A DNA stretch of 63,523 nt, the filler included, from Diploschistes diacapsis (lineage: Eukaryota): assembly GCA_023645945.1 (NCBI GenBank). It is 5 parts of 5 records of this genome, joined end to end, with 100 filler letters (N's around TTAATTAATTAA, not from the genome) between each part and the next. Parts side by side here need not be neighbours in the genome. Positions count along the whole stretch, not along the records: positions 47,393 to 55,416 come from JALAIB010001210.1; 4 more parts are not named here. One strand, given 5' to 3'. Positions within the stretch are counted from its first letter, which is position 1. Every line of letters begins with the position of its first letter. The translations under genes were made by a program, and so were the position numbers. This document shows positions 7,809 through 57,549 of the stretch, piece by piece. Below the pieces are notes generated by a model. That model was not told the DNA's origin. It was given only the letters and a program-made list of their open reading frames with translations, and did not search any database.

Positions 7809-8026
7809 AGCAGTTTACCGGTAAGTGCTTCCCATTTTCTCCACCTAAAACAGACGAACTATCTAAAAGATCAAGCCCCCTGCCCCCACAAAAAAAAGGG
7901 GGAAGGGGGAAGGAGGGAAATTCTTTAAAACGACCCTGCGACTTTTCTTCCCCAATCAACTTACATAGCCAGCCCCCCTCTCCCTCCCTCCGGAGCCGAG
8001 GCCGAGATAACTTTTTTGTTTGAAGC

Positions 8027-8126
8027 NNNNNNNNNNNNNNNNNNNNNNNNNNNNNNNNNNNNNNNNNNNNTTAATTAATTAANNNNNNNNNNNNNNNNNN
8101 NNNNNNNNNNNNNNNNNNNNNNNNNN
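8027..8126. other. Artificial contig spacer N44-TTAATTAATTAA-N44
   Basis: Identical 100-bp construct occurs four times; the core places stop codons in all six frames. Confidence 0.97.
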
Positions 8127-8760: not shown

Positions 8761-8840
8761 GCTCCTGAATCATCCGGCTTAGAAACCAACCTGATTTCAA
8801 TAACGATTTCAATTTATTTCTCTTTCGTATCATATTTTGT

Positions 8841-11800: not shown

Positions 11801-12118
11801 AGAAATACAATGAAGCTCTTTTCTCTTTCGAACTGTTTTAGAGCCATTGTAGCCGCCATCGTGTTCGAAATTGCGTCTATCCCCGAAGCGTACTCCGGCC
11901 AGCCTCCATCTTGATTCTAACTTCGGAACAGATAATCCAGACATTCAGGAAAGACCAAAGTGGGCTTATCATGGCTGTTAACAACCCATTGCCAACAAGG
12001 CAGTATCGTAGATTGACGGAGAAAGAGAGCTTATGATTTCCCTGTGTTCGACTTTGTGAGCCAGCTGCTTGATCAATGCTCTGGCCTCAACTGCGAAAAC
12101 ATGAGAAAGAATTTCCAT
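8841..12118 (-). pseudogene. Bifunctional class II/class I diterpene cyclase (fungal CPS/KS type), disrupted
   Basis: Motifs SIYDTA, QW-type *NQDGGW, HVGFEILVP, TLIHSLEAF, SPSATAAYL, GGVPSAFPS, DADDTAK (DxDD), QSSDGSWG, WVEKVTY, Y*LDEFME, RQYNDYGSVARD and DLYGQLYVARDI. Lesions: frameshift ~11986 (stop 11978-80), TAG 11917-19, frameshift ~11820, TAG 10021-23, frameshift ~9750. Confidence 0.88.
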
Positions 12119-12942
12119 GCCGGCGACCAGTTCTCAATGCTGATGGCGACACTCGAGGAGAAAGTGGGCTTGATTAAGACGCTATCGATTCAAGGTATGT
12201 AAAAGAGTGGGTCGCTCGAGGATAGCAGAAAAGAGAAATTGATCTAGAGACATATGGCATTGAGACAAACTAGAGTATCTTTTCAAACTCGGTATATCTA
12301 ATATCCTTGCTTACCTCTTTCCAGAGCCGAGTACTTCCGGCACAGAATGGAAGAAGGTCTCGACTTAGCGCCCTGCATTTATAGCCTCAATGGCACAATG
12401 ATCCGCACTGATAGAAATCACCCATGTTGGAATGTTGCAGCTGGAGGCTTAGCTAGCTGCATCTGTCCGTCTCCGGAATTAGGCCTTCCAAACCTTTGTA
12501 GAAGTATAAAATTCCACTTATCATGGCTTACTAGGCCGAGTAATTGCATTAGGCTAATGGATGTACAGTTTGAAAAAGAATTAAGATAAGAAGGTCCCGC
12601 TGGCAGTTCTGGGGCTGTCGATCAATGGGTCAATGGGTCGGTGGAATAGACATGCTGCTGACCGAGAAGATAGCCTAGATACCCTGTGGATGATGTTGTG
12701 GCACACTAATGACAAATATGGATAGGTCACGAAACGGATGGCTGGCCAAATCTTTCTGTAAATACCCTCAGATACCCTATCAAGACTACCATGGCGCAGC
12801 AAGCTAAGCAAATAAGAACAGATCGGTCGCTCGACGTTTTTATAATAAGGATGTTGATTCTGTCTCAACAGCCGTTTTTTTTTCCCCTCCCTCTTCCTGC
12901 TTGTTGGTGCCTCAAGACCGAAACCGTTATATCGTTTAACAG

Positions 12943-14546
12943 ATAGACCAGTGTTGGACTGGGAACATAGTCTATAACCTTTACTTTCATCTTCTTGCAA
13001 GACTCCCTGGCCCTTTATTATGGAAGGCCAGCCGCTTGTTCTTCATTCGCTCTCTAATAACAGGGAATCTTGTGATCGATGTGAAGAAGCTTCATGAGCG
13101 CTACGGCGACGTTGTGCGAACAGCGCCAGACGAAGTTTCCTTTGCCCGGGAGGATGGATGGTATGATGTCTTTTCCAGCCAAGCCTGCCACAAGCCGTTC
13201 CCTAGAGACCCGACATTCTTCAACTCTCCTCCCGGTCAGCCAGATAACCTGATCACCACCGTTGATCTGAGCGAGAATGCTCGGATGCGCCAAGTAGTCA
13301 TGCCGGCATTTACTGAGCGTGCACTTGCAAAACAGGAGACGATTATGCAGTTCTATACTACCTTGATGGTCGAGAAACTATTAGAACAAGCTACCGCTCC
13401 AGAAAATGCTCATATGGGCGGCATTATCAACGTCGTGGATTGGTTCAATTGGTATGCATTTGAGGTGATCGGCGAACTTACCTTGGGGGAGTCTTTCGGC
13501 TGCTTGGGTAATACGGAAATCACCCGTGGGTAAATACGATCTTCAGTGCTTTGAAAGGTAAGCCATACGTGCCTCAGAAGCTATATTTGCGGAAAGCTCC
13601 TTGCCGATCGCTATCAGTGATGGCACTAGCAGCGGCCACTCGATACTACATAGGACTAGAATCTCTTCTGATCTGGTTGCTCCCCACAAGTATACGCAAC
13701 TTGCAGCGAGAGCATTACGCGGCTGCGCTGGACAAGATTCACCGACGTATGGACCTTGAGACGGCACGGGACGATTTCATGACTCCCATGCTCAAGAATA
13801 ACCCGAACTTTAAAAAGATGAGTATCCCAGAGATCGAATCCACAACAGCTCTACTTCTATTAGCAGGAAGTGAGACGACTGGCACTACACTCTGCGGAAT
13901 CGTAAGCTATCTCGTCCAGAACCCATCTGCACTGAAAAAGCTAGAACGAGAGGTTCGAAGCAGCCTTAAGCGGGAACCGGATATCACGCTCCGAACTCTG
14001 CAGAATCTTCCGTTCCTCAACGCTGTAATACATGAGGGTCTTCGACTATGCAACCCCGTGGCAGGGGGAATTCTTCGGATTGTGCCCGAAGGTGGAGATA
14101 CTGTTTGTGGTTACTTTCTGCCGGAAGGTGTAAGCATCCTCGACGATTTTGACTTCGGTGTGATTCTCTGATCATTTTGTCGATCTTAGACCCACTTAAA
14201 CATTAATACGGTCGCTATGTCCCGCTCGGAAGCCAACTTCCACCGCCATAAGGAGTCCCTGCCAGATCGATTTCTTCCCGACGGTCTTCGGCCGGTGGTA
14301 TTTGATAAGGACCGCCGGGGCAGCGTAAAGCCATTTGGACTGGGAGTACGCAGCTGTCTCGGTAAATCTGTCGCATTGGCTGAGATGCGGCTCGTGCTGG
14401 CGCGCCTCGTTTGGGGTTTTGACCTCACCGTTGGACCAGGGAGACCAATCAACTGGACGGATCTCAAGACTTATGTTGTGGTGCAAAAGGAACCGATCTG
14501 GATTGCAGTCAATGTGAGGTCGGACTCAAGTTCCTGTAACTTATAA
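12943..14546 (+). pseudogene. Cytochrome P450 (CYP65/Tri11-like), frameshifted; start codon uncertain
   Basis: YNLYFHLLARLPGP, LHERYGDVVRTAPDEVSF, AGSETT (I-helix), EGLR (ExxR) and FGLGVRSCLG (heme Cys). GESFGCLG continues as HPWVNTIFSALK only after a 1-nt shift at ~13519. Introns ~13558-13617 and ~14129-14189. Confidence 0.82.
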
Positions 14547-14948
14547 ATGGAACCGAGATGTCGTTGCTCGAACCAAGGCGGATAGAAAAGTTCAGAGAGT
14601 CGGCTGATTAAGAAAGTCATGCTCGCAGGGAAGAAGACCAAACATCATGAACATTTAATAAGTGTATAGGTGGCACAAAGAAGCTTGAGGAAGTTGCGAG
14701 AAAGAATAATTGCTTTTAAGACTCTGTCATCTGCTTACATTGCTTTCTGCATGTTGTGCTTCCCGCGTTCTAGCCACCGTATTTGATAAATGCTGAATAA
14801 ATAGGTAAGGCTCCGAACAAAAAGAAACCACAGACATGTAGCTCTCCGTAACCTGCCTTCCCTGTAATCCACACCGGCTTCGAAACTGTGCAAAAACCGG
14901 TCACGATCGACCAATGGATCTTTGATACCGAATGCCCTCCCAGACACA

Positions 14949-15809
14949 TCAAACAGCCAACTGCCTGAACTCCCCATTGGAAGTGCAGCTGGCAAATCGC
15001 CAACGTCGATGCTGCCACATAGGAGCCCCCTTGGTCATGATCCACTTAATGGGCGCGCTAACAGGCGGGAAGACTCCGTGCCAAAGCCCGTCCTCGAACT
15101 GGACGCTCTCCATGTTGAGGAAGAAGACGGGAAGGATGTTGAAGAGGAAGGAGATGTTGACCTGCTTTCTGCCGGCTGCCAAAGCGAGTGCCACGATGTC
15201 GATGGGCTTTTCGGGCGTGTTGAAGCGCGAAAGATTGACGATCGTCTGGGGCTCCTCCTTCAGGTGAAGGTACAGTGGTTCAGAAAATGAGTCCATAATG
15301 GCAATGAGTTCCTTGTGCGAGAAGCTGGGCCCCTTCTCCAGAAGGTAGCCCTTAAAGCGCTCGAGGCCGCCATGAAAGGCCGCTGCGGACGCATCAGGCA
15401 GGGGTTCCAAAATGGAGATGGTCGGGAGAACATACCATGCTGTTCTACGGCGCCGTCCATCAAGCCCTTTTTGTCCGCCGCCTTGTCGATGGCGGGGAAG
15501 AACTCGTTCTCCTCGTAATGATGATGCTGCGAGACGCAGTCATGCCAAGCTATACAGTAGCCGACAAACTCCTTCTTGTCGGCCGCCTTGATGCGCGGAG
15601 CTTGCTGATAGATGCTATTGAAGCCTCGGATGAAGGAGTTGTGGCTCAAGGCCATGTGGGAGGCTTCGATGGTAAATGGGTCTGTCTAATCAAAGCATAT
15701 CAGAAGCTTCACACTGCTATGTGGGCAAGAACAGGCTTACTTTGCCAGTCTCAAACTTCGGCGTGTGAATAACTGGCAGCGGAGCATCACTGTACATGGG
15801 AGGTGCCAT
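14949..15809 (-). CDS. Hemerythrin/HHE cation-binding domain protein, 3 exons
   Basis: MAPPMYSDAPLPVIHTPKFETGK | TDPFTIEASHMALSHNSFIRGFNSIYQQAP..HHHYEE..FFP..VEQH | AAFHGGL..HLKEE. GT-AG introns 15740-15686 and 15435-15383. Confidence 0.85.
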
Positions 15810-15981
15810 ATTGACCAGCTTGTGAGAAAAGGCAGAGTAGAGTGGAAGCGAAGAAGTGCGCGGGACTGGGCTGAGATGCCCTGATTTAAAAATGGTCGCA
15901 CAGAGGCACTGCCCATTACTGCGTATGCGTTTGTGAGGCTGGATGGAGAGCTTGTTATCTGCCCTTGCTCGTGCATGGGAC

Positions 15982-16152
15982 TACTGTAGAGTCGTGACCC
16001 TAGTACCCGTGCAGACCCTAGTACCCGTGCACGTGATACAATAACAAAACTACAATAATAAATATTTAAAATGAAATATCTCCAAAAATAATCAATTTAA
16101 GGCCCTATAAATCGAATAATAGTTATATTTAATCCTATAAATTCATCTAATT
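15982..16152. mobile_element. Probable DNA-transposon end with perfect 18-bp tandem repeat, then AT-rich decayed body
   Basis: GACCCTAGTACCCGTGCA x2 at 15996-16031, followed by very AT-rich sequence up to the contig break. Confidence 0.45.
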
Positions 16153-16252
16153 NNNNNNNNNNNNNNNNNNNNNNNNNNNNNNNNNNNNNNNNNNNNTTAA
16201 TTAATTAANNNNNNNNNNNNNNNNNNNNNNNNNNNNNNNNNNNNNNNNNNNN
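16153..16252. other. Artificial contig spacer
   Basis: N44-TTAATTAATTAA-N44. Confidence 0.97.
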
Positions 16253-19201: not shown

Positions 19202-20215
19202 TTACTCGAGCATGTCCTGCTCGACGGTTGGTGAGGCACTCGCGACGCTGTTCGTCCTGCCGTGTAGCGAACTGGCTCCCGGGCTCCTGGCATCTGGCGC
19301 GGCCAGGTCGTCCAGTCCGAAGCTGCTGCTGCTGCTGCTGCTGCTGTTGTTGTTGTACTTGGCCTTGAAGTGGGCGAGATGCTGGTGGATCTCGTGGCAG
19401 CCGCAGCTGTCGGGCGTGTGCATGGCCATGTGCGTCATGAGCGAGATCTTCTCCGTCTGCAGGCTCTCCATCGTCATCTTGAGCAGAGCGTTCTCCCTCT
19501 CCAGGTTCTTCGCCCTCTGCTCCAGAGCCGCGTTGTGTTCCTTCTTCTTCTGACGGCACTTGGAGGCCGCCACGCGGTTGCGTTCGAGGAACTTGCTCCG
19601 CTTCTCCCCGTCCTCGCCGTTCTCCGGCTCGTCTTCCGGCACGTGCGGGCCGCGCGATGGCTTCTTGGTGCGCTTCGTGCTCTTCGTGGACTTGTTGGAA
19701 GACGTCGAGTCCCCCTTGGGATCACGTGACCGCTGCAGCGCAGAATTGACCTCGTCCAGACCAGGCTCGCGCAGGCTGTGCTCGTCCGGCGGAGTCGCCT
19801 GTCCGTACTGGATCCTTGCGTGAGCGCTCGGCCCCGCACCGCCCAACGAGTCCACGAGCGATTGAGCAATCTGCGTGCCGGTAAGGCCCTCGCCGAACTG
19901 CCAGTCGCTTGGCGCTTCCATGGCCGTCTGAGGTGGCGTGATCTCCATCTTGGACGGGTAGGGGCTGTTGAAGAAAGAGTTCGCCGTGGGGAGGCCGTAC
20001 AGTGAGCTCGAGTCGGCGGGTGGCTGTAGCGGTTTGGAGAATGGCTCTGCGGTCGGTTCGAAATGTGGATTGCTTTCGCCAAACGACTTGTCGAACGGAT
20101 TGTCGGGGTAATAGCTGGCGGAGAAGAAGCCGCCGGGGGTGAGTCCGGTCATGAAGTCGCCAAAGCCCGGGGTGGTGTCGCCAGACACTGGAGGAGGCGT
20201 GTTCTTGATGGCCAT
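19202..20215 (-). CDS. bZIP transcription factor, ATF/CREB family (AtfB/Atf21-like)
   Basis: Intronless 337-aa ORF; basic region KRSKFLERNRVAASKCRQKKK followed by a leucine heptad, plus the YGQATPP motif. Confidence 0.9.
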   Translation of the reverse strand: MAIKNTPPPVSGDTTPGFGDFMTGLTPGGFFSASYYPDNPFDKSFGESNPHFEPTAEPFSKPLQPPADSSSLYGLPTANSFFNSPYPSKMEITPPQTAMEAPSDWQFGEGLTGTQIAQSLVDSLGGAGPSAHARIQYGQATPPDEHSLREPGLDEVNSALQRSRDPKGDSTSSNKSTKSTKRTKKPSRGPHVPEDEPENGEDGEKRSKFLERNRVAASKCRQKKKEHNAALEQRAKNLERENALLKMTMESLQTEKISLMTHMAMHTPDSCGCHEIHQHLAHFKAKYNNNSSSSSSSSFGLDDLAAPDARSPGASSLHGRTNSVASASPTVEQDMLE

Positions 20216-20935
20216 GGTTGGAATGGATTTCGGGGGTATCGTTTTTGTTTGTTTGTTTATTTATGCTGTGTGTGTGTCGGACTGACTTGCTTGGCGTGTT
20301 GAATGTGAAAAGGACAGGAAGAATAGTGGGGGAGGCCGGATCGATAAAAAGGAACCGTCGAAGCAGCTAACCAGACTCGTTAAGGTTTCGGTAGGGTGTT
20401 CCTGGAACAGGCACAAAGATCGGTGGGCAGTGAGCCGGCGGGTATGGAGCAGTAGTATGGGCGATGGGAACGGGTGAGGAGCTATACACGAGCAAGGAAG
20501 CTCGCTCGCTCGCTCGCTCGCTTTTGAGAAGGTTTGAATTTATTTACTCGGGGGCGGGGCGTAGTGGTGACGGAACAAAGGCAGTTGGAGCAAAACATGG
20601 GAAACTGAGGATGGGGAATGCGTGCCTCCCTATATATTTATGATGCCAAAAGGCGGCCGGTAACTAGTTTCTGCTTCTGGCATAGAAAGAAAATACCGTA
20701 AGCAGCATGAATCTGGGAAAAAAGGTTCAGTGTTATTTTGGGCAGATTTGCAAGCGATCGAGATCAGTGGCCGGGCAAATCATGCACTTTCCTAAACTTT
20801 CCCATATTTCCTTCGTTTTGGATGGAAGGGGGAGTTTGCACCGACAGTAGTCGTGAGTCATGACTGGCTACTCGGACTCAGGCAGGTGAATTATGAATTA
20901 TCGAGCTTTCTAGGAACAAGTAACAGCTGCAGTAA

Positions 20936-23146: not shown

Positions 23147-24692
23147 TTAACTCAGGATTCGAGTCACCAAGCCGGTCGCCACTGTGCGCCCACCCTCACG
23201 GATATTGAAACGCTGACCTGGTTCCATGGCGAGAGGGTGCAGGGTCGAGCAAACCATCTCGACATTGTCGCCCGGCATTGCCATCTTTTCTGCCTTGTTC
23301 TCAACGTTGTCGGGCCAGTCCAGGCTTGCGGCTTCATCTAATTCAAAAGATCAGCCAAAGTTTTTTAACTGAACTTGGGAAATGTGATGTGACTTACCGG
23401 CTGTCCGTACATATAGCTGGGGTTTGTAGTTCCCATGGAAGCCGGTGTGGCGGCCGCCTTCCTCCTTGGACAAGACATACATTGAGACGAGGAACTTGTT
23501 GTGCGCCTTGGTTGTGCCTGGCTTAGCGACCACCATTCCACGCTTGATGTCCTCGCGCTTGACCCCACGTAGCAGCAGACCAGAGTTGTCTCCTGCACGC
23601 GATTCTTCACATGACTTCTTGAAGGTCTCGATATCTGTGACCTTTGTCTTGATAACCTCGCTGCCCTTGCCTATTAGCTCGACATCTGCGTCTCGTTTGA
23701 GGTTGCCGCGCTCCACACGACCCGAAGCCACGGTACCTCGGCCCGGGATAGAGAAAACGTCCTCGACGGACATCAGAAATGGCTTCTCGATATCTCGAGC
23801 CGGCTCGGGGATCCAGGTGTCGACCGCCTGTAGTAGCTCGTCAATCTTATTCCTTCCGATATCGTCCTTTCGACCATCAAGCGCGCAAAGGGCGGAGCCC
23901 ATGATAATCGGAGTATCGTCACCCTCGAAGCCATAACTGGTCAACAGCTCGCGCATCTCCATCTCTACGAGCTCCAACATCTCCTGGTCTGCAATGACGT
24001 CGACCTTGTTGACGAAGACAACGATCTTTTGGACTCCGACCTGACGGGCTAGTAGGAGATGCTCTCGCGTTTGTGGCCTGCTCGAGTCAACTCAAGGTCC
24101 TGATTGAGTCCCACGCAGTCTGGTTCTCACATTTGACCATCAGAAGCGGCAACAACAATAACCGCTCCATCCATGTTCGAGGCTCCAGTAATCATGTTCT
24201 TGATGTAATCGGCGTGACCAGGGCAGTCGACATGGGAGTAATGTCGGTTCTCTGTTTCGTACTCGATGTGGGCCGTGGAGATTGTGATACCACGTTTGCG
24301 CTCTTCAGGAGCTTTGTCTATCGAGCTATAGTCGAGGAAATTGGCGAAGCCTTTTTCGGCTTGTCTTTTGGTGATTGCGGCGGTGAGCGTAGTCTATGTA
24401 TACATCGTCAGCAATGTCTTGCCGCCGAGATACCAAGGAATAATGTACTTTGCCGTGGTCGACATGGCCAATCGTGCCTTACACCGTCATTACCTGGTCG
24501 AGGAAGCTATTTTTGCAGGCACGTACCAATATTCACGTGAGGCTTTGACCGCTTGAACATCGTCGCATACGCTCTGAAAGCGCCGCCATCTTGGGCGAAA
24601 ACCCTCTGAACAGGGTTGATGCTTCTCTGCTGCTGAAAAGCCAGCCTACCTGCCCGTAGACTGGGGCCGAGTAATCTGGAGAAGGCTGGCAT
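23147..24692 (-). CDS. TUF1: Mitochondrial translation elongation factor EF-Tu, 5 exons
   Basis: Arg-rich targeting peptide; [64 protein letters not shown]-terminal [10 protein letters not shown]. Four canonical GT-AG introns. Confidence 0.97.
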
Positions 24693-34799: not shown

Positions 34800-37754
34800 T
34801 TACTCGTCTATGATGTTCTTGTTGAAGAAGCGATGTATCTGGGCCCCAACCTGCTTCCCCACCAGCTCATGAAGGGTTTCTTCAGGTAAGTTGCTGAGCG
34901 TCACCATGTCTTCAACTTCCAACGTTATTCGGCTGAGGTTCTTTCCCGTTATACCAGGCACTGCTCGCAGCAGATCCTGTGGTGTCTGATTGAAACTTTG
35001 TTCCCCCGGGTTTTCACCAGCATCCAACCCAATCTGGACTGCTTTGATCGGGTCGGGTTCATCCTGGTTTTTCTTCAACTCTTCGAAGATCTCGGCGCTC
35101 TGGTACGGCGAGGAAGACCAGATTATCTTGAGTCGAGGAAAAGCAATTGTAAGCATGACGATCTTAGACTGAATGTCTTGGGAGCTCGAGGTAATTGTGG
35201 TAGGCAATGAAGACTCGGCGAACGGATCTAAAGTAAAGGACTTGTTCTGATCGAATTCGATGAGCAGCATTGGGTTCTTGTAATGCTGTAGCATTTTTTC
35301 AGCCTGATTGAAGAGTCTTCCGTTCTTGAACGAGGATATTAGATCTCGGACTGACTTTCGCTCGATGCAAATATTTGGTGAAAGAACATAGTCGGCCACT
35401 GTAAGCATGCAAGGAATGACTATCATAGACCGTCCATGGAGTAGGGAGGGGAGGGAAGAACTGAACTCTCGGACATCTACAACGGTTATCGGTGGTTTCG
35501 CAGTAGCGGTGAGCCGCCCTCCTCCGGCGATCCTAGTATTGACTGTGCGCAAGAACTGTTCCTGTGGATCTGCAACAGCTGCATCATGGTTGATGGTCAT
35601 GGACATGGTCTGTAGCCTGTTAGCGGTAGAGCTATCAATCAGAAAAAGCACTATACCCCTCGTTCCTTGATTAACTTCGTGAAAGCGTCTTTCTCCCTTC
35701 GAACGGCACTCAGATATCGCTGCTCCTCCACAGAGCCTCCATAGTACATAAAGTAAACTTTGATGTTCCGGTCGCTGTGAGAGCTTCGATACACTTCGAC
35801 CCTGCGTATAAACGCTGCATCTGGCTCGTACATTATGACGTACCTGGGCCGGACCTCTTCCAGCAACTGTTCATCCATGTCTCCATCGTACGGATGCACG
35901 ACGACAAGGTCATCCATGAATAAAAGCTCAAAGTAGTCTTCAATGTTTTCAAGATCGTCGACTATGATCTCCTCTTTTGGTTCTATCTCTTGTCCAGTCG
36001 ATTGTACGCCAGCCATTAACTCTGCTACTTGCGCTTCTTTTTCTGCGGCTGCACCGATGCCACCATCCAAAGGCCTCCCACCGCCAGCTGCAGCCGCAGA
36101 GCCCCCTCGAAGCCTCCTCCGCTTGTTTGGGGGAGGCTTCCCTCGGTAGGCTCCGCTTGCTCCTCGTTGGTCCGTGAACCCATCCAGGGCCTTCTGATTC
36201 TCCGAAAAGAGCGCTGCGCTCACCTTGGTGAAGTATTGCTTCCAGCTTAGGTAGTCTCGGAGCCGCCGTCGCATCATCAGCCGAGCTGAGGCTTGCGCTT
36301 TTTTACTCTCTTCTTCTTTACCTTCTTCTGTCGCCTCTTCTCTGACATCCTTCGTCTGCAGATACTGCCTGATTTGTCTGCAGGTGCTTTGATCAATGCA
36401 CATGATCAGTATAGTTCCATTGGAGTCGTCCCTGACTGTTGGATTCAAGTAGGCATCCATTTCAATCTCCTCAAGGATTTCTGCGAGCAAGGCCCACTTT
36501 GGCTGTTCTTCCAACACTGGGCGTAAAGAGTCAGGGATATTGCCGTTTGCTGGAGTTACAGGCGCTACTTTGCCAGTATAGACCCTTCGCTTAGCTGTCT
36601 CGAAAATGGTATTTGCGGCATCGAGGAAAAGCCACGGGGATTGGTTCTGGCGGGTTGAGCCTGGTGGAGGCTGATGTGCTGCTAAGATCGTATCCATGTA
36701 TTTGTTAAACGACACGGCATCGTAAGTGAGCAGAGCACTTGATCAATATTAGCTCCCGTGAGGTTTGTATCGGATTAGACACACTGACTGCAGCATCGAA
36801 CGCAACACTGCGAGATCACCGACTATTTGCCGAGTCTTGAAGGTGGTCCGGTGCCAAACTGGGTCAAGCTGACGTCGAATTAACACGTCAAAGTTCTTGT
36901 GCAGAGCGCTCTCAAGCGTCCAGTCTTCGATGTCGAGTCCAGTCCCGGACTTTCGGAGTTCTGAGATGCTAATCTCAACGCACTCGAGAATGGCGTTCTG
37001 TATCTCTCTCATGCTATCCGTCATCGGCACATCAAACTCAATCACCTCGGCCTTTTTGCGGCCCTCGAGTGACTTCGCGACTGTCGCGTGAAAACGAGGC
37101 CACAGCGAAGGCTTTCGCAGGAAAAGATTTCGCATAGTAGAAGTCAGGGGAGAGAAGCCTGTGGCCAGTGGTTCAGGATTGTCCGAAAAAGCCTTCAGAA
37201 ATCCGCTCTTGTTGTTCTGCCGATAGACTCGTGCAATAAAGGCTTCGACAGATGTCGCCGTTACTTTCTCAGCATGTAGAACTAGCAACCCAGTGATCAT
37301 CTCCGGGTTGAGCAATTTCGAGAGCAGATCGACTATCAATATCCTCGAAGTGATGCTGAATATGCCACCTTGAGAGTACATCTTCTCTCGGGCACCGACG
37401 TTGAACATATCGGTATTGACCTGGGTGAGCCCCCTAGCAAGGGGTAATCTACTAGTGGCTGCATGCTCGGCCAGAGCCTCCCCTATCCAGCCATTTTCTC
37501 TATCCTCGGCCCCTACGATGACAATAAGATTATTTCCCACAGCATCGTAGGAATGTAGCAAGTTGGTGACAACGCGCAGGGAGCCAAGCCCGCGTGCCAA
37601 CACAACGAGTCCATCTTCAGCGCGAAGCTCGGAGAAGAGATCCTGCTGGTATTCCTTGCACCTGTAAGCATCGTTTTTCCGCGATGCAATCTAACAGACC
37701 TACTAGAGGCAACGAGAGCTTGACCGAGGGAGCTTTTGTCGAGTTTGAAGTCAT
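34800..37754 (-). CDS. RAD1: XPF/ERCC4 structure-specific endonuclease (Rad1/Rad16/MEI-9), 4 exons
   Basis: KLSLPL|EYQQDLF..LARGLG, ITSRILIVDLL, LWPRFH, VLEEQPKW, FIRRVEVYR, YGGSVEEQRYL, VDVREFSS..DYVLSPNICIERKS (ERCC4 nuclease motif) and HhH LRAVPGI. Confidence 0.96.
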
Positions 37755-37944
37755 TTGGTCCTCCGGTAAGGATGACAAACGACGAGAAAGAAAGAAAAAA
37801 AGTATTCTAGATCCTCACGATCTCGCTTATCTAGCAAGTCTTGGCAGCACCTCACTCCGGTTTGAAGCGATTCGCAGCTTGCGTTCCCATCCACACCCCC
37901 CACCAAAGCGTGAAGGATCGCTCGCCAATGGTTGGGCTGCTCAG
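37755..37944. promoter_or_regulatory. Probable bidirectional promoter shared by RAD1 and GEP4
   Basis: Only 190 bp separate two divergent start codons (37754 and 37945). Confidence 0.6.
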
Positions 37945-38764
37945 ATGTCCAATCTCAACCTCTCAGGCACCTTCAATGTTTTCAAGCTGCTTTTCAATCC
38001 ATCCCTATGCCTCCCCCACGCCGCGGTCTCCAGCTTTAATCAGCTTCCTATACCTGTTACGAGAGCCTTCGGTCCGGGTGAGAAGAGAACCCGTGTCGAT
38101 ATCCGCGCTATAGTCCTTGACAAGGACAATTGCTTTGCGAAAGCAGGCAAGAATAGTGTACACGATGAATACAAGGTCGGTCATCTTTCTCCTTGTGCGT
38201 GGTTGCGGGCGCAAGCTGTGTGCTAACGAAAGCCTACAGAGACACTTTTCTTCCCTCATGAAGACCTACGAGCCGTCACGGGGCCGACTGCTTATAGTGT
38301 CAAATTCCGCCGGTACCACATCTGTCGACCCTTCCGCTAGGGATGCCAACCAGCTTGAGCTCAATACTGGCGTGCCAGTACTCCTGCATAACGGGAAGAA
38401 GCCTGGCTGTGGGCCTGAGATTATGGAATACTTCCGGAAGCATCCCGAATCTGGAGTCACACATCCGAGCCAGGTCTGTATCGTAGGTGACCGGCTTTTC
38501 ACGGATATCATGATGGCAAACATGATGGGCTCATGGGGTATTTGGATACGCGATGGAGTTGAGTACGATCAGGGCGTAGTGAGTAGACCTTAAGGCTTGG
38601 TTGGATGCACATGTAGAAAGGAGGAAGTTCTTGGAGATTTGACAGCACAACATCACTGATATTTGGAACCGCAGTTTGCTCGCTTTGAAAAGAGCCTCTA
38701 TGGATACTTACAGCGCCGCGGACATTCGCCGCCTGAGCCAAAGAACCCCTTTGAGGGGGCGTAG
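37945..38764 (+). CDS. GEP4: Mitochondrial phosphatidylglycerophosphatase (HAD IIIA), 3 exons
   Basis: MSNLNLSG..PSLCLPH, IRAIVLDKDNCF, LLIVSNSAGT, KKPGC, VGDRLFTDIMMAN. Introns 38176-38239 and 38579-~38674; last exon FARFEKSLYGYL..NPFEGA*. Confidence 0.92.
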
Positions 38765-47292: not shown

Positions 47293-47392
47293 NNNNNNNN
47301 NNNNNNNNNNNNNNNNNNNNNNNNNNNNNNNNNNNNTTAATTAATTAANNNNNNNNNNNNNNNNNNNNNNNNNNNNNNNNNNNNNNNNNNNN
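47293..47392. other. Artificial contig spacer
   Basis: N44-TTAATTAATTAA-N44. Confidence 0.97.
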
Positions 47393-47680
47393 GTGGTGGG
47401 GGTGAGAGTGGACGTGACTGCCATTTTGACTTGCTACTGCAAGAAACCTGGTTGCGATGGAACTTTTGTGTATAAAACACTTTCTCTACGGCCAAACAAC
47501 TTTGTCTTCTCGCCTTTTACTTAACTCCCTACCACTGTGAAGCTGTTTTGCCAAGCTACGAAGACCCCCGCAAGTTTTAACTTGCGCCGCACGACCTTGC
47601 CTCTCTCCTCTCTCAAGGAGCGCCGCATCTTTGCCAAACCACTACTATATCCCAGACTCGACATCCTAACCTCTATCACG

Positions 47681-48774
47681 ATGCCTACAGGCATAATACA
47701 GGTACCTTTCCCCATCCATCCCTCCTCCCCACCTCCCTCCATGCTCCCCTCAAAATTGACGCCTGCCCACCTACCCCACCCACTCAGCCTTCCAACCAAA
47801 TAAAACTCACCAACATCTCGCTCGTGCGCCTCAAAAAAGCCAAAAAGCGCTTCGAAATTGCCTGCTACAAGAACAAAGTCCTCGAGTACCGCTCCGGGCT
47901 CGAGACCGACCTGGACGAAGTCCTCCAAGTCCCCTCCGTCTTCCTGAACGTCAGCAAGGGCCAGCTCGCTCCCGCAGCGGACCTGGCCAAGGCGTTCGGC
48001 AAAGACACCAGTACCGATGATATCATACTCGAGATTCTGAAGAAGGGGGAGCTGCAGGTGGGCGACAAGGAGCGCAAGGAGGGGATGGAGCGGGTGCAGC
48101 GGGAGGTGCTGGACATTGTGGCGGGGAAGCTGGTGGATCCGAAGAGCAAGAGGGTGTACACGCCCGGCATGATCGAGAAGGCGCTGGAGCAGCTGAGTCA
48201 GAGGGCGGCGCAGGCGAGGCAGGAGCATGGTGACGGCGGTGGCAGTGGTGGTGGTGGTGGTGGAGGAGGAGGAGGAGGAGGAGGAGCTGGGACTGGAGCC
48301 AAGAGCACCGGCACGGCAGCGCCGGCCAATGGAGAGGAACCAGACGGACCGGCGAAGAAGGATCTGCCGACGTGGACGGGCGTGGTCACGACAAAGAGCG
48401 CCAAGAGCCAGGCGCTCGAGGCCATGAAGGCGCTTATTGCGTGGCAGGTCGTCCCCGTCATGAGGGCACGGATGAGGCTCAGGGTTGCGTGTCAGATGGC
48501 GATCCTCAAGCAGGCGGTGAAGACGGCCAGCAAGAAGGACGAGGACGCAGCCGGGGAGGGGGAGGAGGCGAAGGCGAAGGGAACGGTCAAGGACAGGATA
48601 CTGTCGTACGTGGAAGAGGTGGAGACGCAAGGCGAGGCGGGCGGGGAATGGGAGGTTGTTGGGTTCGTGGAGCCCGGCGCTTTCAAGGGGCTGAGCGATT
48701 TCATTGGAGGGGAAACGAGGGGGAAGGGGAGGGTGGAGGTGCTAGACATGGCGGTTGTGCACGAAGCGGATTGA
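47681..48774 (+). CDS. SDO1: SBDS-family ribosome maturation factor, 2 exons, with a poly-Gly insertion
   Basis: MPTGIIQ | intron 47702-47787 | PSNQIKLTNISLVRLKKAKKRFEIACYKNKV, FLNVSKGQ, ILKKGELQV, KSAKSQAL, RARMRLRV. Confidence 0.95.
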
Positions 48775-49190
48775 AGGCGGATTATGGGCTTTTTCGGTAT
48801 GGCATAGTGTGCGGTTCGGACACATTGTTTGCATATCAAAGAACCCTCTCTAGGAATCTTAGCTTGTCACTAAACAAACTCTTCCCAAGAAAGGTCTAAA
48901 AAAAATTTTCAGCACCACACGGTAATAGTCACATCGGGCGAGTATTGCATACAAGGCCCTGATATACACGGAACAAACCAAAGCCAGCAATCTTCACATG
49001 CTCAGACAATAAAAACATACAAGAGTTCATGAACAGTGCACCTCAACAAAGGCAGTACTGTTGCTTGAAGCTCAATTTGCACATCAATGAGATACCAGAC
49101 ACTAAGTCGAGAGCATCCGATGCCGGTCCCCAATGCACCATAACCTTTCCTCCATATCCTGGCAGCTCCTCTGGCAACCCTCTCCAACGC

Positions 49191-50616
49191 TTAACCCTTC
49201 TTCTTCGACACACCAACAGTCCTTCCCCTACGGCCAGTTGTCTTGGAGTGCTGACCGCGGACACGGAGGCCCCAGAAGTGACGTAGACCACGGTGAGCAC
49301 GGATCTTCTTGAGACGTTCTAAGTCATCACGGAGCTTGCTGGCCACACCGTTCGCCAGAACCTGTGAGTCCTTGCCGTCGACGATATCGCGCTGTCTGTT
49401 CAAAAACCATGATGGAATCTTGTCTGTATAATATCGAAGTAAGCTTCGTAACCCACCAGCGTCTCTGGAAAGCGATCAAGATCAACGTACACTGCGTCGG
49501 GTTCTGAATGATAGTCACGACACGTTCGAGCTCTTCGGACGTGAGTTCGCCCGCGCTAGAGTTTGAGTCAGTACGTTTGTAAGTTGGAGCAGAAGCTCTG
49601 AAACGCTCACCGCTTGTTCAAATCCACGTCTGCTTTTTTACAGACGAGATCTTGAGAAACGTTAGTTGGAAACTCCAAATGCGTTGAAGGGTACATACTG
49701 CTGTATCTCCTTCCAACGCCGCTGATCTTGGTCAAAGCCGCAGGCCATCAGCAACGTCCAGGGAACCTGTTCGCTTCATCTCTTACCATACATGATCTGC
49801 ATAAATGTCAGCTCCTACTCTGAATAGCGCAAACCCACCCAAGGCATTCGTATATAGCGTCGCATTTTTCCAAATACACGGAGTCCCGTCTCGAAAAAGC
49901 TTTACAATCCAGGCATTAGGCCCGCGCCTTTACACGCCTAGAATCGTGCCATCGACAAAGAAGCGCCTCAGTTCTGGCGCTGCCTTTGCTTTTCGATATC
50001 GCAGAAGGGGTTCTGCAATAGACCAACAGTGTTTATACCAGGAACTGTCTGCACCGGCCGTGCGAAATTGCCGAGTTGCGAGAAATGTAAAAGACAATAA
50101 TATAAGGTCTCAAACTACCCCAACTCTGAGTCGCCGCTGAAGGTGGTTCGAGACCCAATAGTACTGGTCGTCAACCCTCACTGTATTCCTGCATTTGCGG
50201 ACCAAATTTGATGCAAGTCTCGCCAGCCTCGGGGCTCTTGCCGGCCGATCAATATCGTGCAATGCTCTTTATCGAGGAAATTTTGTAGGGAAGGGTGTAT
50301 TTGGATAAACCACGCTAGATACGAACGCCCTGCCAGTGTTTGGTCATTGAGGTTCGCACACACCTTTTGCTTGCCCTAGAATATTCGTCAGCACATGATA
50401 TTTGAACCCATAATTACACGTACATCCACGTTCGTGTTGAGAATTCGCAAACAGAAGAGAAGTCAGTTGATAAGGCCTACATCAGGAGAAGCGGCAAATA
50501 CATGAATTGGAAGTTCGACTTTTCCCCTGTGACGAGCGCTAAACAGACCAAATCAGCCGACATCAGCAAAGAGTTATCTTGGAGCAAGATAACCGTTAGA
50601 CGGCTGGCATACACAT
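49191..50616 (-). CDS. RPS18: 40S ribosomal protein S18 (uS13), 9 exons, 155 aa
   Basis: Exons 50616-50613, 50538-50502, 50451-50424, 50375-50364, 49796-49787, 49737-49699, 49650-49611, 49555-49491 and 49423-49191 total 468 nt. They encode [91 protein letters not shown]...[34 protein letters not shown]. Introns 2 and 5 end in CTG and CGG. Confidence 0.95.
50083..50180 (-). ncRNA. Candidate intronic structured RNA (H/ACA snoRNA-like 3' hairpin or regulatory stem) in RPS18 intron 4
   Basis: GGUCUCGAACCACC pairs with GGUAGUUUGAGACC (13/14 pairs, 50155-50106). ACAUUU lies ~17 nt downstream (50088-50083). No clean adjacent H box found. Confidence 0.35.
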
Positions 50617-51549
50617 TGGATCGGCGACACGTCGTTTGATGGTGGATGCTTCGCGAAATGTGAGTTTCTTGTTCAATAGACAACGACTTGGTAGATATTG
50701 GATTGTGGAAGAACACCGCACTAGCGCGGACGCTAGGGTATGCCGCTTAGTCATTCAGTGACACCTCCAACTAAGCTAGTATTATCGTCTCTTGACCTCT
50801 GCTATTCTTAACCCTCTTACGGTTGTCTCACTTTATGCCCACTCAAGAGCTTGGAAGGCGCTTCTGATCTATCATGAACAGACTTAAAAACTCCTGTGAG
50901 AGCTTTAAGTATCTCATGTTTTGTGATTCGCTTATAATCAGGGGCGAGAGCTCGTAGGATGTGTACTACCGGTAGGGATTGAAAAAGCATATTTTTCGAG
51001 AATCTCTGAAAGGAGTCCAATTCGCTCTACGTGTTTCGTCAATATGCCTACGCCACACTTTCCTTTCTGGCTTGAAAGATCTATGAACGCTGATTCTGCA
51101 GATACCGTTTCAACGCGTTTTATGCGTATTAGGAAAAGCTCCTTCCCGCATCGCCGCATCAGCATCAGCTACCTCCTACGCTTTGCAGCTTTGAGCTTGA
51201 AAAACCCTCTAGGATTGAAGTTTAACAAAGTCTTGTCTTCTGGCCCCTTAAGGTGCTATTTCTTGACCACATCGATCATGGACATATCTGCATCGGTGTC
51301 TCAGTGGTTCCGGAACCAAGAATCTGGCTTTTATGGCAGCTTCGATGTTGTTGTTGGGGCTATTTTCCTTATAAATACCTGAACATCCCCAGTTCTTGCA
51401 TGCTCACTCGCATCTGCCTCTTCTATCCTTACAGTCTCATTGTCCTTCTTTTCTCTGTGTAGCCCTTCCGGTAACATCCTTTTTTTGTTTATTTGTATCT
51501 GGATCTGGTACCGTTTGAACCTGTGCTTCGTGTCCTGATATTTCACTCA

Positions 51550-52063
51550 ACTTGGAAATTCATTCTTTGCAACATACGTCCATCAGCTGCACCCGTTATA
51601 GGCTTGTTAGCAGCTATCAACGCTGGTATGCCTTTGAAAGTTCCTGGCATGAAAATCGACTTAGCGATAATAGCTCCTTATCCCCGGAATCTGGGTGGTC
51701 ACGAGAATAATCTCCGACCTCCGCCATTTATCAGGTTCCTTCGCTGCGACTTCGGTGACAGCGAGCGGCACTGCATCTGCGTGCATTGCTCCGGCCACGT
51801 CAAACGGCAACGATCAGAACGACAATGGTCAGGGTAACGGCAACGACAACGGCAACGTGGGCAATGGGTTCGGTAATGGAAACGGCGACGGCGGACAAGG
51901 CAACGGACAGGGTGACTGAAATGGCGATGGTGGCGTCGGTAACGGCCAGGGCAATGGAAACGGTGATGGCGGCCAAGGCAATGGACAAGGCAATGGACAA
52001 GGGAACGGACAAGACAACATTGGCCAAGGGAATGGACAGGGCAGCGGCCAGGGCAATGACTAA
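51550..52063 (+). pseudogene. Gly/Asn/Gln-rich repeat protein gene (possibly secreted), interrupted
   Basis: GNGQG-type repeats run from ~51800 to 52060 in one frame, broken by TGA at 51917-19 and ending at TAA 52061-63. A hydrophobic leader-like segment and GTATGC donor sit near 51626. The 5' end is uncertain. Confidence 0.5.
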
Positions 52064-55000
52064 CGCGTCTGAGCTTTGGCCCGCTACAGAATGAATCATG
52101 TCTAACAGGTTAACAGGGAAAAAGCTATCGTCCTTGAGTAACCGTCACAATGACATTTGTGGGGCACGTCGAGCGTTTGCAGATCGTCTGGTTGGGTGCT
52201 TAAGTGGAGCATAACTGGTGTTTCTGGTTTGCAAGCAGCTTGTACTTGAACTTCTTTCGTCTCATGGATGCCAAACATAACATCTTAAAAAGGCCAAAAG
52301 TATTCTCAAGTATACAGCACGCAAAATGTTGTCCTCCTTCACTTTACGTGGCATGTTTGCGGTCATAGCCATCAATAACGAGACTTGTCTGTTCGGGACT
52401 GATGACAACGTTCCTCTCGTAAACTTCATGAACCCCATAAATTATTCAGGTCAGTTTTAGTCACAGAGCTTCCATAATTTACTCACCTGTAAATTCGTCT
52501 CTTCTAGAGCATTTGCACCCACGGTACCATTAGAGGATACGGTGGGATTTGCTGCGACTGTGCCAGCCCTACCGCTAAACCTCATTTTCAAAACAGGGAA
52601 GACCCAACTTATACCCCTATCTGTTTCGATGTGCCGTTCAATTGAGGTTAAAACAACCCGATCCAAATAAACGAGGAAGCCAACTATAACAGCAGCGATA
52701 TATACAAAGTCCTCTCAAGAAAAACTGTAGCGTCCTGCTCTTTTCTTGGAGGGCATTGGGCGTGATGAGGTTTGGGACGCCATGATCTGTATGGGGGAGA
52801 GTTTGTAGTGCTTCGAGGCAGCTATGGCTGGGCTTTGATACCAAGTCTGGTCAATCTGCTGACTTTAATAAGCGAACAATGCATCGGACACGGGACACGC
52901 AGAGGTAGCCTTATAGCATCAATGATTGTCAAGACCAAGATACCGCATTGAAGAAGGGATGAAGGCCTGCAGGGATACTGAAAGATAGGAAGCATATGAA
53001 CTAATTTGGAACGCTACGGCTGCGATCAGGCTTTTGGATTGGATACTCCGTGGTGACCTCGGAGGGTAAGGCGGGGGGGGGGCTTGCGGAGAGAGACCTA
53101 CAAGTGGCCTCATTGAAAGCGAAAATTATTATAATGATCGTGGCTAATGAGGCATGACTGGAGTTGAGTTCACAAGGGCTACGGCGCCAGAATGATTATA
53201 TTAGTGCGACTCTATAGAGTATTCAGCTTTGAGCGATTGTAGGCGGAAGAAAACCGGACTGAGCATTTTTTTCTGACAACGGGTTGACAATCCATCGTTT
53301 TCACGGCGAGAAAACCCCACAAAGGCCTGGTTGATCTCTTTGAGGTCGTTCGCCCACGGCGCCATCCAGCTCTTCGAACTCTTCACGTTCGCTGGATATA
53401 TATTTCATGCCTCCTAAGCATCTGGAAAGAATAACCAAAGTCCTAAGGTACAACACCCACAAGCCCTCCGGTTGTTATACGGTGGGAACCACGAAGTTCC
53501 TGATTTATCTCGAGTGCCTCAAACTTGAAGGAAGAAGCGAAAAGATGAAGAAATCAGCAGTAGCACTCGGTCCAACTCTTCACCCTGTGAACACCTCTGC
53601 CCTACCTTTTGCCCTCCGCACCACTCCCTGTGTCTCTTCTTCTTTTCCTTGGTTATCTCAAACGCCACCAAACCTCTCAAACCCAGATCATTATACATAC
53701 GCATCTTCGCCTAGAAAAACCTCCTCTTCCACAACAGCCAGCTGAAACGATACCTCGCTAGCCCGCGCATGTATCCCGAAGGTAGCTATTTGACGAGCTC
53801 TACCTGGGGATTTTGCACAGATCCAACAAGGTAACGTCTTTCAATGATGGATTGGTGATCATTAAGAAAGTGCTTGTACGTTGCGCCCTAAGTAATAGCA
53901 ACAATGAGATTGTGGCGTTCCAGCTTCAAAGGTGGGCTTCGATGCATTCCTGCGTTTGAGGATAATGGTACGTCATTAGTAAGTAGGGGAAACACAACAA
54001 TCACCGTCCTGCAGAAGCTGGGATGTGTATTCCACGTCCGGAAGTTATCTTATGACTCCTGGATGGAAGGGTTCGATGATATCGGTGACTGGGTGTGATG
54101 GAACTCTTCAATGCACGGTTGTTGTCAAGCCTCAAGCGAAGCGATAGTTTGTGGCTCTTCAATGTTGACTCCTGCAGAACTCTATCTGCTAGAATTATGG
54201 AAAAATATGGTAGCGACCCCTAAAGCCACATTCGGATGGCATCTCCATGTCGAATCGCACTGAGTTGACAGCTCAATTATTGATAGCATGACTGCAGCCC
54301 ATCTATAAGATAAAATCTGAGGTTTTTTCTCTTCGTGTCGGCTCCTAAGGCGTTCTGAAAACCTAAGGGAATGGAAAGCAAGGTGGCGACCTCTAAACTA
54401 GTGTTTATACTGCTGCTCGACAGTGACTCCAGCGATTATTTGACCACCGAGGTTTGTGGAATAACTCTTGGCGACTCCAAGAGCAATGTTCGCATTGCGT
54501 GCTAAGTAAAGCCCTGCGACGCTCTGAATGCCTGCAATCTTGGAACCGAACAGCGATGGCTAACTAGAGCAGTGACCATACTGTCGCTTGATGTCGGTTC
54601 CTGCAAGGGCTTGGTTTCCGGAGCTGGAGAAGAATGGCGGCCACTTCCGAGTAAGATATGTGTTGTTTCTCGACGTCGACTGCTGCGGGGTCTTGATTGT
54701 CCGTAATCGGCTTAAGATGGTGGCAAGTTTTGATTTTGATATTGCCCTCCAATGCCGAGTCATGCAATGCTGTGACTGCTAGAAGCTGTGGAAACAATTA
54801 ATGGCGGCGTCCTGCAATGATTTGGCCAATAAAAGGGACGAAAGACAATGACGGATTTGGAAGAATATATGGGTTGAGTTGTGAGAGGAGGTTATGCCAT
54901 GATTTGACTTCTGAGGTGGTTGAATAAGACTTGGGCAACCTCTAGAGTAGTATTTGTACCGTTTTTCTATAAAAATCTCTGCAACAATTTAATGACTGAA

Positions 55001-55416
55001 GGATTTGGAAAAGACGTAGAGACTATCTGTAGAGTACATGCTGATTTAGTCATCCGAGAGCTTTGCTCTTCGAGAATGCTGTACTTCAAAGAAGCAGTCA
55101 GGCTATCGGTAGCTTTGTTGAGCAGGGCGATTCGGGAGCACCACCTGCTCCCCACCTCGGTCACATATAGTGTATCTACTAAACTGTTTAACTCATATCT
55201 AGTTCTTATAATAATTAGTATATATTATATATACGAGTTATATTACGTCACAAGCGTGTTATTTCCAATATATTTATGTAACGTATTTCACGGCGATTCC
55301 CAGATTCCCAGATTCCGGCCACATCAAATCACTATTTTTATCTTATATTCGATCTTTTTCAAACATGATTACCTCGTATAATAATAATTTGATTTTAATA
55401 GAATTTAATATTAAAG

Positions 55417-55516
55417 NNNNNNNNNNNNNNNNNNNNNNNNNNNNNNNNNNNNNNNNNNNNTTAATTAATTAANNNNNNNNNNNNNNNNNNNNNNNNNNNN
55501 NNNNNNNNNNNNNNNN
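55417..55516. other. Artificial contig spacer
   Basis: N44-TTAATTAATTAA-N44. Confidence 0.97.
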
Positions 55517-56239: not shown

Positions 56240-56497
56240 TGTCGGCGTACGGAACCGTCAGCAAGTTTCTAGCACGGGACACTAAAACATTGACCATATA
56301 TCCAAATGTTTCATTCTATTTTTTTTCGTTGCTTTGCTTCTACCCTTTGTGCTATACACATCCCTTGTAGGTTCCTCTGCCCACCGCTTCTGCGCTTGGT
56401 TTTCTGATTTGTGTACTTCCACACTCGACTGAAGTGCTTGGATAATCCCAACTATCGAACCAGAAGAAGGCTGAAGGCTCCTTGCAAATTACTACTT

Positions 56498-57549
56498 TCA
56501 CATGTTCCGGCCTCCAGTCACCATAATTGTTTGTCCGTTTACGTAGGAGAACAGCGGGCTCGCTACCGCCAAGATAGCGCTCGCAGCCTCTGAAGCAGTC
56601 CCGGCTCTCCTCAACGGAATATCCGCATGCGCATTGGAGCCAGCAGTTTCCTTCTGCGCTTTCGGTATCCCAAGCGCAACCTTCGTCCCGTCTGCGGTTG
56701 TGACGAATGCGCCCTCCTCTTTCGCAGCGGTGAGACGAGTCAGGATGTGACCGAAAGCAATACTGGAGGTGAACAATCGGCCTTAGCGTTGGAAATATTC
56801 GGAAGCACTCCAGACTCACGTGTTACACCTAACACCAAATTGAGGACCCCATTCCTTAGCAATCGCCTTGCTCAGGCCCGTCACTCCCGCCTTAGCCGTG
56901 GCATAATTGGCCTGGCCCGCATTGCCATTGACGCCGCTCGTGCTCGAAATGTTGATGATGTTCCTCGGCTCACCGTCCTTGACTCTAAAGTATGGCGCCG
57001 CTGCCCGCACCAGCCGGAAGGGCGCTGTGCCGTGCAGGTTCAGGATTGTATCCCATTGCTTGTCCGTCATCTTGTGTATTACGCCGTCCCAAGTGAAGCC
57101 AGCATTATTGACTATAATGTGGATCTTCCCATTGCCGAACTCGGCCGCTTTCTTGACGAGGGTCTCGATGCACGAGACGTCCATCATGTCGCCTGGAACG
57201 GCGAGTGCCTTGCCGCCGCCTGAGGTTATGGATTTCGCGACTTCATTAGCTTTGCCTGTAGGTGAAGCAATAGGTCAGCGGGATGCCAAACTATTCGCAC
57301 TCTCCGTTATCTTGCGTTGCTGTTGTCCGCAGACGAGGAAGCAACTCAGCAATTGAAAGCATAGTGGGCCTGTGGCTAACCTGCATCAATGTCCGAGACG
57401 ATCACGCTCGCACCCTCGTTCGCGAACAGGCGAGCTGCTTCAGCTCCAATGCCCTGGCCACTACCGGTAATTATTGCTACCTGCCCGGCGAGCAGACCTC
57501 GAGGGTAGTTGAGATGTCCTGCGACCTGTTCGAGACGCTTTGAAGCCAT
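56498..57549 (-). CDS. Short-chain dehydrogenase/reductase (FabG/3-oxoacyl-ACP reductase-like), 3 exons
   Basis: VAIITGSGQGIG, VNNAG, NISS, YATAK (YxxxK), C-terminal YVNGQTIMVTGGRNM. Introns ~57380-57256 and ~56818-56763. Confidence 0.92.

Follow-up and report, generated by a model that had tools for sequence, protein, structure and literature searches.

The AG that closes U2-type introns at their 3' end is regarded as a near-absolute rule, and acceptors that depart from it while keeping the terminal G are a rare but known class. We describe here the uS13/RPS18 gene in an assembly of Diploschistes diacapsis (GenBank accession no. GCA_023645945.1), where it lies in a stretch of DNA of 63,523 nucleotides (nt), filler included, the whole of which we refer to as the window; introns 2 and 5 of this gene end in CTG and CGG, respectively. 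As judged from its sequence, RPS18 is probably a working, single-copy uS13 gene of a lichen-forming ascomycete (Lecanoromycetes). We think it on balance likely that the gene works and that the spliceosome uses both G-terminal non-AG sites, which are placed 11 and 10 nt past standard branch sites.

Comparable acceptors have been described in several eukaryotes. Spliceosomes of Saccharomyces cerevisiae are reported to be able to ligate exons at [C/G/U]G 3' sites, CUG and UGG among them, which tend to adjoin the branch point and whose use is promoted by U tracts and by base pairing to the first nucleotide of the intron; these sites are normally suppressed by Prp18, and Prp18 and Slu7 are dispensable where the branch-to-acceptor distance is short (PMC10711555). 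Human TG acceptors are described as real and conserved (Szafranski et al. 2007, PMC2374985), and the manually corrected annotation of Ganoderma lingzhi gives 38 GT-GG and 22 GT-TG introns beside 89,855 GT-AG introns (PMC11590231, Table 1). On the side of regulation, the genes for RPL10a, RPS9, and RPL22 are described as regulated through splicing (autoregulation), and the introns of lichen ribosomal DNA (rDNA) have been proposed to slow ribosome assembly and have been tied to slow growth and desiccation tolerance (PMC8527467). The part of one review of ribosomal-protein gene regulation used here cites uS13 for paralogue-specific expression and not for autoregulation.

Structure of RPS18 and its two non-AG introns

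RPS18 comprises nine exons and eight introns (Table 1). Six of the introns are GT..AG, ending in TAG (introns 1, 3, and 7), CAG (introns 4 and 8), or AAG (intron 6). When introns 2 and 5 are removed at CTG and CGG, the joined coding sequence of 468 nt encodes 155 amino acids (aa) that are colinear over their full length with eukaryotic uS13, aligning without gaps and with 145/155 identical residues to the proteins of the lichen fungi Variospora (P0113) and Physcia (P0120) and sharing 136 of 155 residues with that of Thermochaetoides (P0082). The open reading frame (ORF) of exon 9 (49194-49475) matches the Pfam family Ribosomal_S13 (PF00416) over profile positions 62 to 128 of 128, with E = 1.5e-27 and 97 bits (cutoff, 31).

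Introns 2 and 5 both have the GT donor of U2-type introns (GTATTT and GTAAGA, the latter a good donor) and a CTRAY-like branch sequence (CTGAC and CTGAT), and neither has AG at its 3' end. CTG and CGG each stand one base away from CAG, with the last G kept, and in intron 2 all 10 of the 10 bases before that G are pyrimidines. The boundaries of intron 2 are fixed, since no equivalent sliding is possible; for intron 5 the sole equivalent placement, one base upstream, would make the intron GG..CG, which is worse. From the branch A to the intron end there are 11 nt in intron 2 and 10 nt in intron 5. For comparison we rebuilt 13 introns (8 of RPS18, 4 of TUF1, and 1 of SDO1), of which 11 end in AG; those of TUF1 and SDO1 were rebuilt by eye against homologues and the former were checked against TUF1 of Thelotrema and Icmadophila, TUF1 being on a different contig that is tied to RPS18 by binning only. 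In 10 of the 11 AG introns the branch A lies 9 to 16 nt from the end (14, 12, 11, 11, 12, and, by eye, 16 nt in RPS18 introns 1, 3, 4, 6, 7, and 8; 9, 14, 9, and 13 nt in TUF1), the exception being the SDO1 intron with 28 nt. CTG and CGG fall within this range, and the odd acceptors are thus at the position where an acceptor is expected.

AG dinucleotides offer no substitute for either site. Exon 3 (50451-50424) contains no AG at all, and the first AG past the branch A of intron 2, at a distance of 86 nt, belongs to the acceptor of intron 3; a TAG at 50479-50477 within intron 2 precedes the branch site. The frame upstream of exon 3 reaches a stop inside the branch motif of intron 2, so that no AG acceptor keeps LRILNTNVD in frame. 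Past the branch A of intron 5, the first AG belongs to an out-of-phase AAG at 49729-49727. Full-length uS13 is impossible by any of the seven AG-only routes that we examined, whose products are given in Table 1, and no other stretch of the RPS18 contig encodes the two peptides that the CTG and CGG junctions restore.

These results bear out most of what a preliminary description of the locus had drawn from the sequence. It had placed introns 2 and 5 at the same coordinates, with the same donor, branch, and acceptor letters, and had stated that exon 3 lacks AG and that exon 6 lacks one in the required phase, which the listing of AGs past each branch A confirms. Its claims that the other six RPS18 introns and the introns that it had reconstructed in TUF1 and SDO1 are GT-AG agree with the AG endings of the introns rebuilt here. 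The complete 155-aa uS13 that it predicted is matched by the gap-free alignment to lichen uS13, and its view that the gene needs both a TG and a GG acceptor is upheld by the failure of the seven routes. Two further weaknesses that it did not point out are the donor of intron 2, with T at +5, and the competition for intron 5 from the out-of-phase AAG downstream.

U12-type introns, which tolerate odd 3' ends, carry as their consensus RTATCCTT at the 5' splice site and TCCTTAAC at the branch point. Neither the donors of introns 2 and 5 (GTATTTGCC and GTAAGAGAT) nor their branch regions (TCAACTGAC and GTTGCTGAT) fit this consensus, and a reading through the minor spliceosome is ruled out. RNA structure prediction around both acceptors revealed nothing beyond shuffled sequences, with z-scores from -0.6 to +0.8. 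Within this range, the branch region of intron 5 (49747-49755) is predicted to form a 9-bp pairing with exon 6 (49718-49726), just past the AAG (z = -0.6, not significant).

The two acceptors in other sequencing runs and in relatives

One search for public runs returned five matching DNA runs and no RNA run among them: X1, a lichen metagenome that holds 97% of the sampled words and is the probable source run of the window; X2, which holds 34% of the words and comes from a named organism in another study; X3, a rock metagenome produced in a third study and holding 17%; and two further runs from the study of X1 with next to none of the words. Contigs of X1 to X4, re-assembled from raw reads and all DNA, were aligned to positions 49000-50800 at a likeness of at least 80%. 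X1 yielded one contig, identical at 1,801 of 1,801 bases, at a depth of 87. Across the acceptor of intron 5, X2 record 2 (49005-49868, depth 83) has 11 substitutions and X3 record 14 (49443-49982, depth 3) has 8, all of them listed and none at 49738-49740; across that of intron 2, X2 record 5 (49919-50456, depth 82) has 9, likewise all listed, with none at 50452-50456. CGG stands in three data sets (X1, X2, and X3) and CTG in two (X1 and X2), and no variant with a share of at least 10% was reported at either site in the contig alignments. The lineages of the window, X2, and X3 differ by about 1.4% over the gene, and the non-AG sites, being common to lineages this far apart, predate their split.

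The same alignments provide further observations on the gene. An X3 contig of a different fungus follows exon 2 as far as 50502, where the match ceases and the contig continues as ILRLL; this is an independent mark of the end of exon 2. X2 also contains a minor variant (depth 15 of 130) in which the pyrimidine run of intron 2 is shorter by one base, at 50457; its branch A would be 10 instead of 11 nt from the acceptor. Intron 4, at 567 nt about 10 times longer than the other seven, sets apart the micro-exons of 12 and 10 nt and varies freely among strains (e.g., a 15-nt insertion in X2 at 49937). It contains no C box, and an Rfam scan of 48500-51500 gave a single chance-level match (E = 0.3), outside the gene, with no small nucleolar RNA in the intron.

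A metagenome scan with exon 9 recovered 76 RPS18 loci (595 pattern matches, 77 confirmed), none of which has, where covered, an intron at either non-AG place. At the place of intron 5, the coding sequence is uninterrupted in 63 loci, 12 lack coverage, and 1 begins at that point; for intron 2 the corresponding numbers are 48 uninterrupted, 23 without coverage, and 5 split nearby. The nearby introns inspected in other fungi all end in AG and are at other positions. In L003, L006, L029, and L033 the intron separates the codons for Q and H in FQH and lies 5 nt upstream of the intron 2 place; the L002 intron lies 2 nt upstream of it, and that of L031 is at yet another position. The intron of L006 (about 2940-2990) begins with GC rather than GT. 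Judged against these loci, introns 2 and 5 are lineage specific in position. The best named relatives of SDO1, which is on the RPS18 contig, are those of Trapelia (69%) and Circinaria (70%), and those of TUF1 are from Thelotrema (85%) and Icmadophila; these point to a Lecanoromycete near Ostropomycetidae that has no close annotated relative.

Possible use, loss, or selection of the two acceptors

In the reading that we favor, introns 2 and 5 would be ordinary short U2-type introns, with GT donors and the branch sites CTGAC and CTGAT, in which the acceptor CAG became CUG or CGG, losing the A at -2 and keeping the final G. The retained G would presumably interact with the first intron base, an interaction that goes with greater use of such sites in yeast, and the branch-to-acceptor spacing, which is the same as in AG introns, would still allow docking of the site and joining of the exons at exactly that point in the second catalytic step. 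Splicing would probably be less efficient than at AG sites; with such reduced efficiency, frameshifted by-products are to be expected, through skipping of exon 3 or use of the AAG at 49727.

Several observations weigh against this reading, in which splicing at CTG and CGG is predicted from the DNA sequence. Intron 5 has no pyrimidine tract (TGGCCTGCG) and has a competing AAG 12 nt downstream of its CGG, and intron 2 has a weak donor as well (T at +5). The yeast [C/G/U]G sites are described as being used at low levels when Prp18 is present (PMC10711555); human TG acceptors, in the portion of the report that deals with them, are always alternative to an AG within 28 nt and never sole (PMC2374985), whereas RPS18 intron 2 has no AG for 86 nt past its branch A. 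In X2, CTG is supported by a contig that breaks off only 5 nt away; no X3 contig covers 50403-50463, which leaves the CTG site unseen there; and the window may itself derive from X1. Record 7 of X2 (50510-50601) has one unlisted difference, which could fall in exon 2. The 76 metagenome loci, from more distant relatives, offer no orthologous intron. A diverged uS13 paralogue may exist outside the window and the X1 matches. When exon 9 was compared with the longer proteins of a protein collection, no full-length uS13 identical to it was found among the best 120 of the 2,896 matches with E of at most 1e-20, the best fungal one reaching 97%; the lack of a near-identical protein among these 120 may only mean that the species is unannotated.

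Divergence among strains bears on the possibility that the acceptor mutations killed the gene recently and that uS13 is supplied by a copy elsewhere. Against the two long contigs of X2, 1 of 427 coding positions differs versus 19 of 975 noncoding positions plus 5 indels (binomial p = 0.0068); against X3 (records 10, 13, 14, 15, and 16), the counts are 2 of 317 versus 17 of about 930 (binomial p = 0.10), and the two comparisons are not mutually independent, since X2 and X3 share several differences. The coding differences are at two sites, 49718 (X2 and X3) and 49525 (X3 only), both synonymous third positions. Left out of these counts are the short X2 contigs (records 3, 4, and 6 to 9, plus 35 not shown) and X3 records 11, 12, and 17; records 11 and 12 have 8 to 9 differences in about 60 nt and thus come from other organisms. 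Two lesions and a weak donor in one gene do resemble damage, and the second splicing step normally fails at non-AG acceptors, but the lesions are older than the split of the three lineages, since which coding positions have changed 8-fold less than noncoding ones, including introns and untranslated regions, and only synonymously, with donors, branch sites, micro-exons, and frame all intact.

The supply of uS13 from elsewhere can be judged from copy number. Among the 974,171 contigs of X1, a single one aligned to positions 49000-50800 at a likeness of at least 80%, although the same contig alignment, whose filter drops some records, picked up foreign fungal RPS18 pieces in X3 and X4; no second uS13 was found within the window, and the 120 best protein matches include no near-identical full-length protein. 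A close uS13 paralogue in the source sample is unlikely; a more distant one may lie elsewhere in the genome. Taking these points together, we consider a dead or redundant copy unlikely. The preliminary description had argued against decay, which the divergence among strains supports, and the second RPS18 copy that would have undone its case was seen neither at this likeness among the X1 contigs nor in the window. If the sites are not used after all, the locus would be a very young pseudogene.

A narrower form of the favored reading holds that the weak acceptors are kept by selection and make productive uS13 mRNA rate limiting, the mis-spliced forms passing to nonsense-mediated decay (NMD) and the whole acting as a brake or regulated valve on ribosome production; we regard this as distinctly unlikely. 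In its favor, the gene is otherwise intact, with the same invariant A altered in both introns, and the default AG choices lead to frameshifted products with early stops, a prerequisite for coupling to NMD. The sites are also fixed in three related lineages, but these strains are only about 1.5% apart, which makes fixation weak evidence of selection. The control of RPL10a, RPS9, and RPL22 through splicing and the proposed slowing of ribosome assembly and growth by lichen rDNA introns (PMC8527467) count in its favor as well; against it, the relevant part of the review mentioned above contains no uS13 autoregulation. Drift in a slow grower with relaxed demand for ribosomes would explain the same facts, and tolerated drift does so with fewer assumptions. 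We give little credence to the specific proposal that selected acceptors would let the permissiveness of the second step (Prp18/Slu7-type fidelity) set the supply of uS13 and hence the output of 40S subunits, and as little to its extension by analogy, in which, much as proposed for the rDNA introns, they would hold back ribosome synthesis at the level of splicing in a lichen fungus that grows slowly and tolerates desiccation. As a variant of the same idea, this may be a lineage with generally relaxed fidelity at 3' splice sites.

Splicing of RPS18 at AG sites only, to yield a shorter or different protein, is very improbable. The way out named in the preliminary description, exon 4 spliced to ACCAAG/ATC (49726), does join in frame and gives 148 aa, but it deletes IMYALTK, which is found in every full-length fungal uS13 examined, and it leaves intron 2 unsolved, as no AG route keeps LRILNTNVD. 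A sequence or assembly error that hides CAG at both sites, to which their single-base departure from CAG would lend itself and which the preliminary description had named as a case that would refute it, is scarcely credible, as contigs of three runs from three studies (two of them other than that of X1) agree at 49738-49740 and those of two runs (one from another study) at 50452-50454.

Setting in the window and comparison with described systems

The window consists of separate contigs (1-8026, 8127-16152, 16253-47292, 47393-55416, and 55517 to the end) joined by N blocks (8027-8126, 16153-16252, 47293-47392, and 55417-55516), each made of 44 N, TTAATTAATTAA, and 44 N, a linker with stops in all frames; genes on opposite sides of a linker are therefore not shown to be neighbors. 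RPS18 and SDO1 share one contig of 8,024 nt, and TUF1, RAD1, and the others are on different contigs. The gene for the ribosome maturation factor SDO1 (47682-48771, plus strand) is tail to tail with RPS18; it has a single GT..AG intron after codon 7 (47703-47787), with a branch-like TTGAC 28 nt from the acceptor, and the SDO1 proteins of Circinaria and Trapelia lack the glycine-rich insert, about 20 residues long, that it encodes. The third intron of TUF1 (24078-24130, minus strand) has a tandem GAG-CAG acceptor, of which only CAG gives the conserved DGQMPQTREH. The other genes in Table 1 were recognized by Pfam searches on ORF pieces, up to position 57274.

Table 1. Features of RPS18, products of AG-only splicing routes, and other genes of the window
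Feature	Position	Strand	Detail
uS13/RPS18 gene, start to stop codon	49191..50616	minus	9 exons and 8 introns; exon model
RPS18 ATG	50616	minus	
RPS18 stop codon	49193-49191	minus	
Exon 1	50616-50613	minus	4 nt (ATG plus one base)
Intron 1	50612-50539	minus	GTATGC...TAG
Exon 2	50538-50502	minus	ends ...FQF plus 2 bases of Ile codon
Intron 2	50501-50452	minus	50 nt; GTATTT...CTG; non-AG acceptor; weak donor (T at +5)
Intron 2 branch motif	50467-50462	minus	ACTGAC; branch A 50463; then 10-base pyrimidine run and G
Exon 3	50451-50424	minus	28 nt; LRILNTNVD
Intron 3	50423-50376	minus	GT..TAG
Exon 4	50375-50364	minus	12 nt; GKQK
Intron 4	50363-49797	minus	567 nt; GT..CAG
Exon 5	49796-49787	minus	10-nt micro-exon; IMY plus one base
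Intron 5	49786-49738	minus	49 nt; GTAAGA...CGG; non-AG acceptor
Intron 5 branch motif	49752-49747	minus	GCTGAT; branch A 49748
Exon 6	49737-49699	minus	contains competing out-of-phase AAG
Exon 7	49650-49611	minus	
Exon 8	49555-49491	minus	
Exon 9	49423-49191	minus	stop included
Route: intron 2 retained			product 21 aa
Route: exon 3 skipped			product 22 aa
Route: upstream TAG in intron 2			product 55 aa
Route: intron 5 retained			product 33 aa
Route: AAG in exon 6	49727		product 43 aa
Route: CAG in exon 6	49722		product 48 aa
Route: exon 4 joined to exon 6	49726		148 aa, in frame, without IMYALTK; still needs CTG site
Fungal transcription factor	4455-6317		Pfam on ORF pieces
Cytochrome P450	12940-14543		Pfam on ORF pieces
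Hemerythrin-domain protein	15263-15685		Pfam on ORF pieces
bZIP factor	19205-20260		Pfam on ORF pieces
RAD1/ERCC4	34803-37690		Pfam on ORF pieces
Mitochondrial PGP phosphatase	37570-38590		Pfam on ORF pieces
Short-chain dehydrogenase	56355-57274		Pfam on ORF pieces

If both acceptors are used, RPS18 would be a natural case in which non-AG acceptors are the sole productive sites, twice in one essential, probably single-copy gene. It would further show that position can replace the A at -2 where a short fungal intron has its acceptor about 10 nt past the branch point, and it would provide a testable handle on how lichen fungi may limit ribosome production at RNA-processing steps. Gene predictors restricted to AG acceptors will break RPS18 here.

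The Ganoderma lingzhi figures correspond to about 0.04% GT-GG and 0.02% GT-TG per intron, and two such introns in the eight-intron RPS18 are far above these rates; that fungus is a basidiomycete, and the part of its report concerned with these introns notes no functional enrichment and no link to ribosomal genes (PMC11590231). Were the acceptors selected as a brake, RPS18 would resemble RPL22, RPS9, RPL10a, and the lichen rDNA in that introns of genes for ribosome components limit output; those systems, as described, use canonical sites, protein feedback, or rRNA processing. With the human TG acceptors it shares a U2-type GT..TG intron (intron 2), whereas intron 5 ends in GG. A TG-AG tandem acceptor of the human kind, with a usable AG within 28 nt as reported (PMC2374985), does not fit either intron, as intron 2 has none and the AAG of intron 5 is out of phase. 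The yeast [C/G/U]G sites, as reported, are minor alternatives seen mainly in a mutant and unmasked by loss of Prp18, whereas those of RPS18 would be the only productive ones, in a wild organism and twice in one essential gene. Like the yeast class, of which CUG (MAF1) and UGG (UBC12) were confirmed by reverse transcription-PCR (PMC10711555), RPS18 has U2-type introns whose terminal G is preceded by a pyrimidine or G; its CUG and CGG keep the terminal G with a base other than A at -2, and they lie 11 and 10 nt from the branch A, just as many of the yeast sites are reported to lie close to the branch point.

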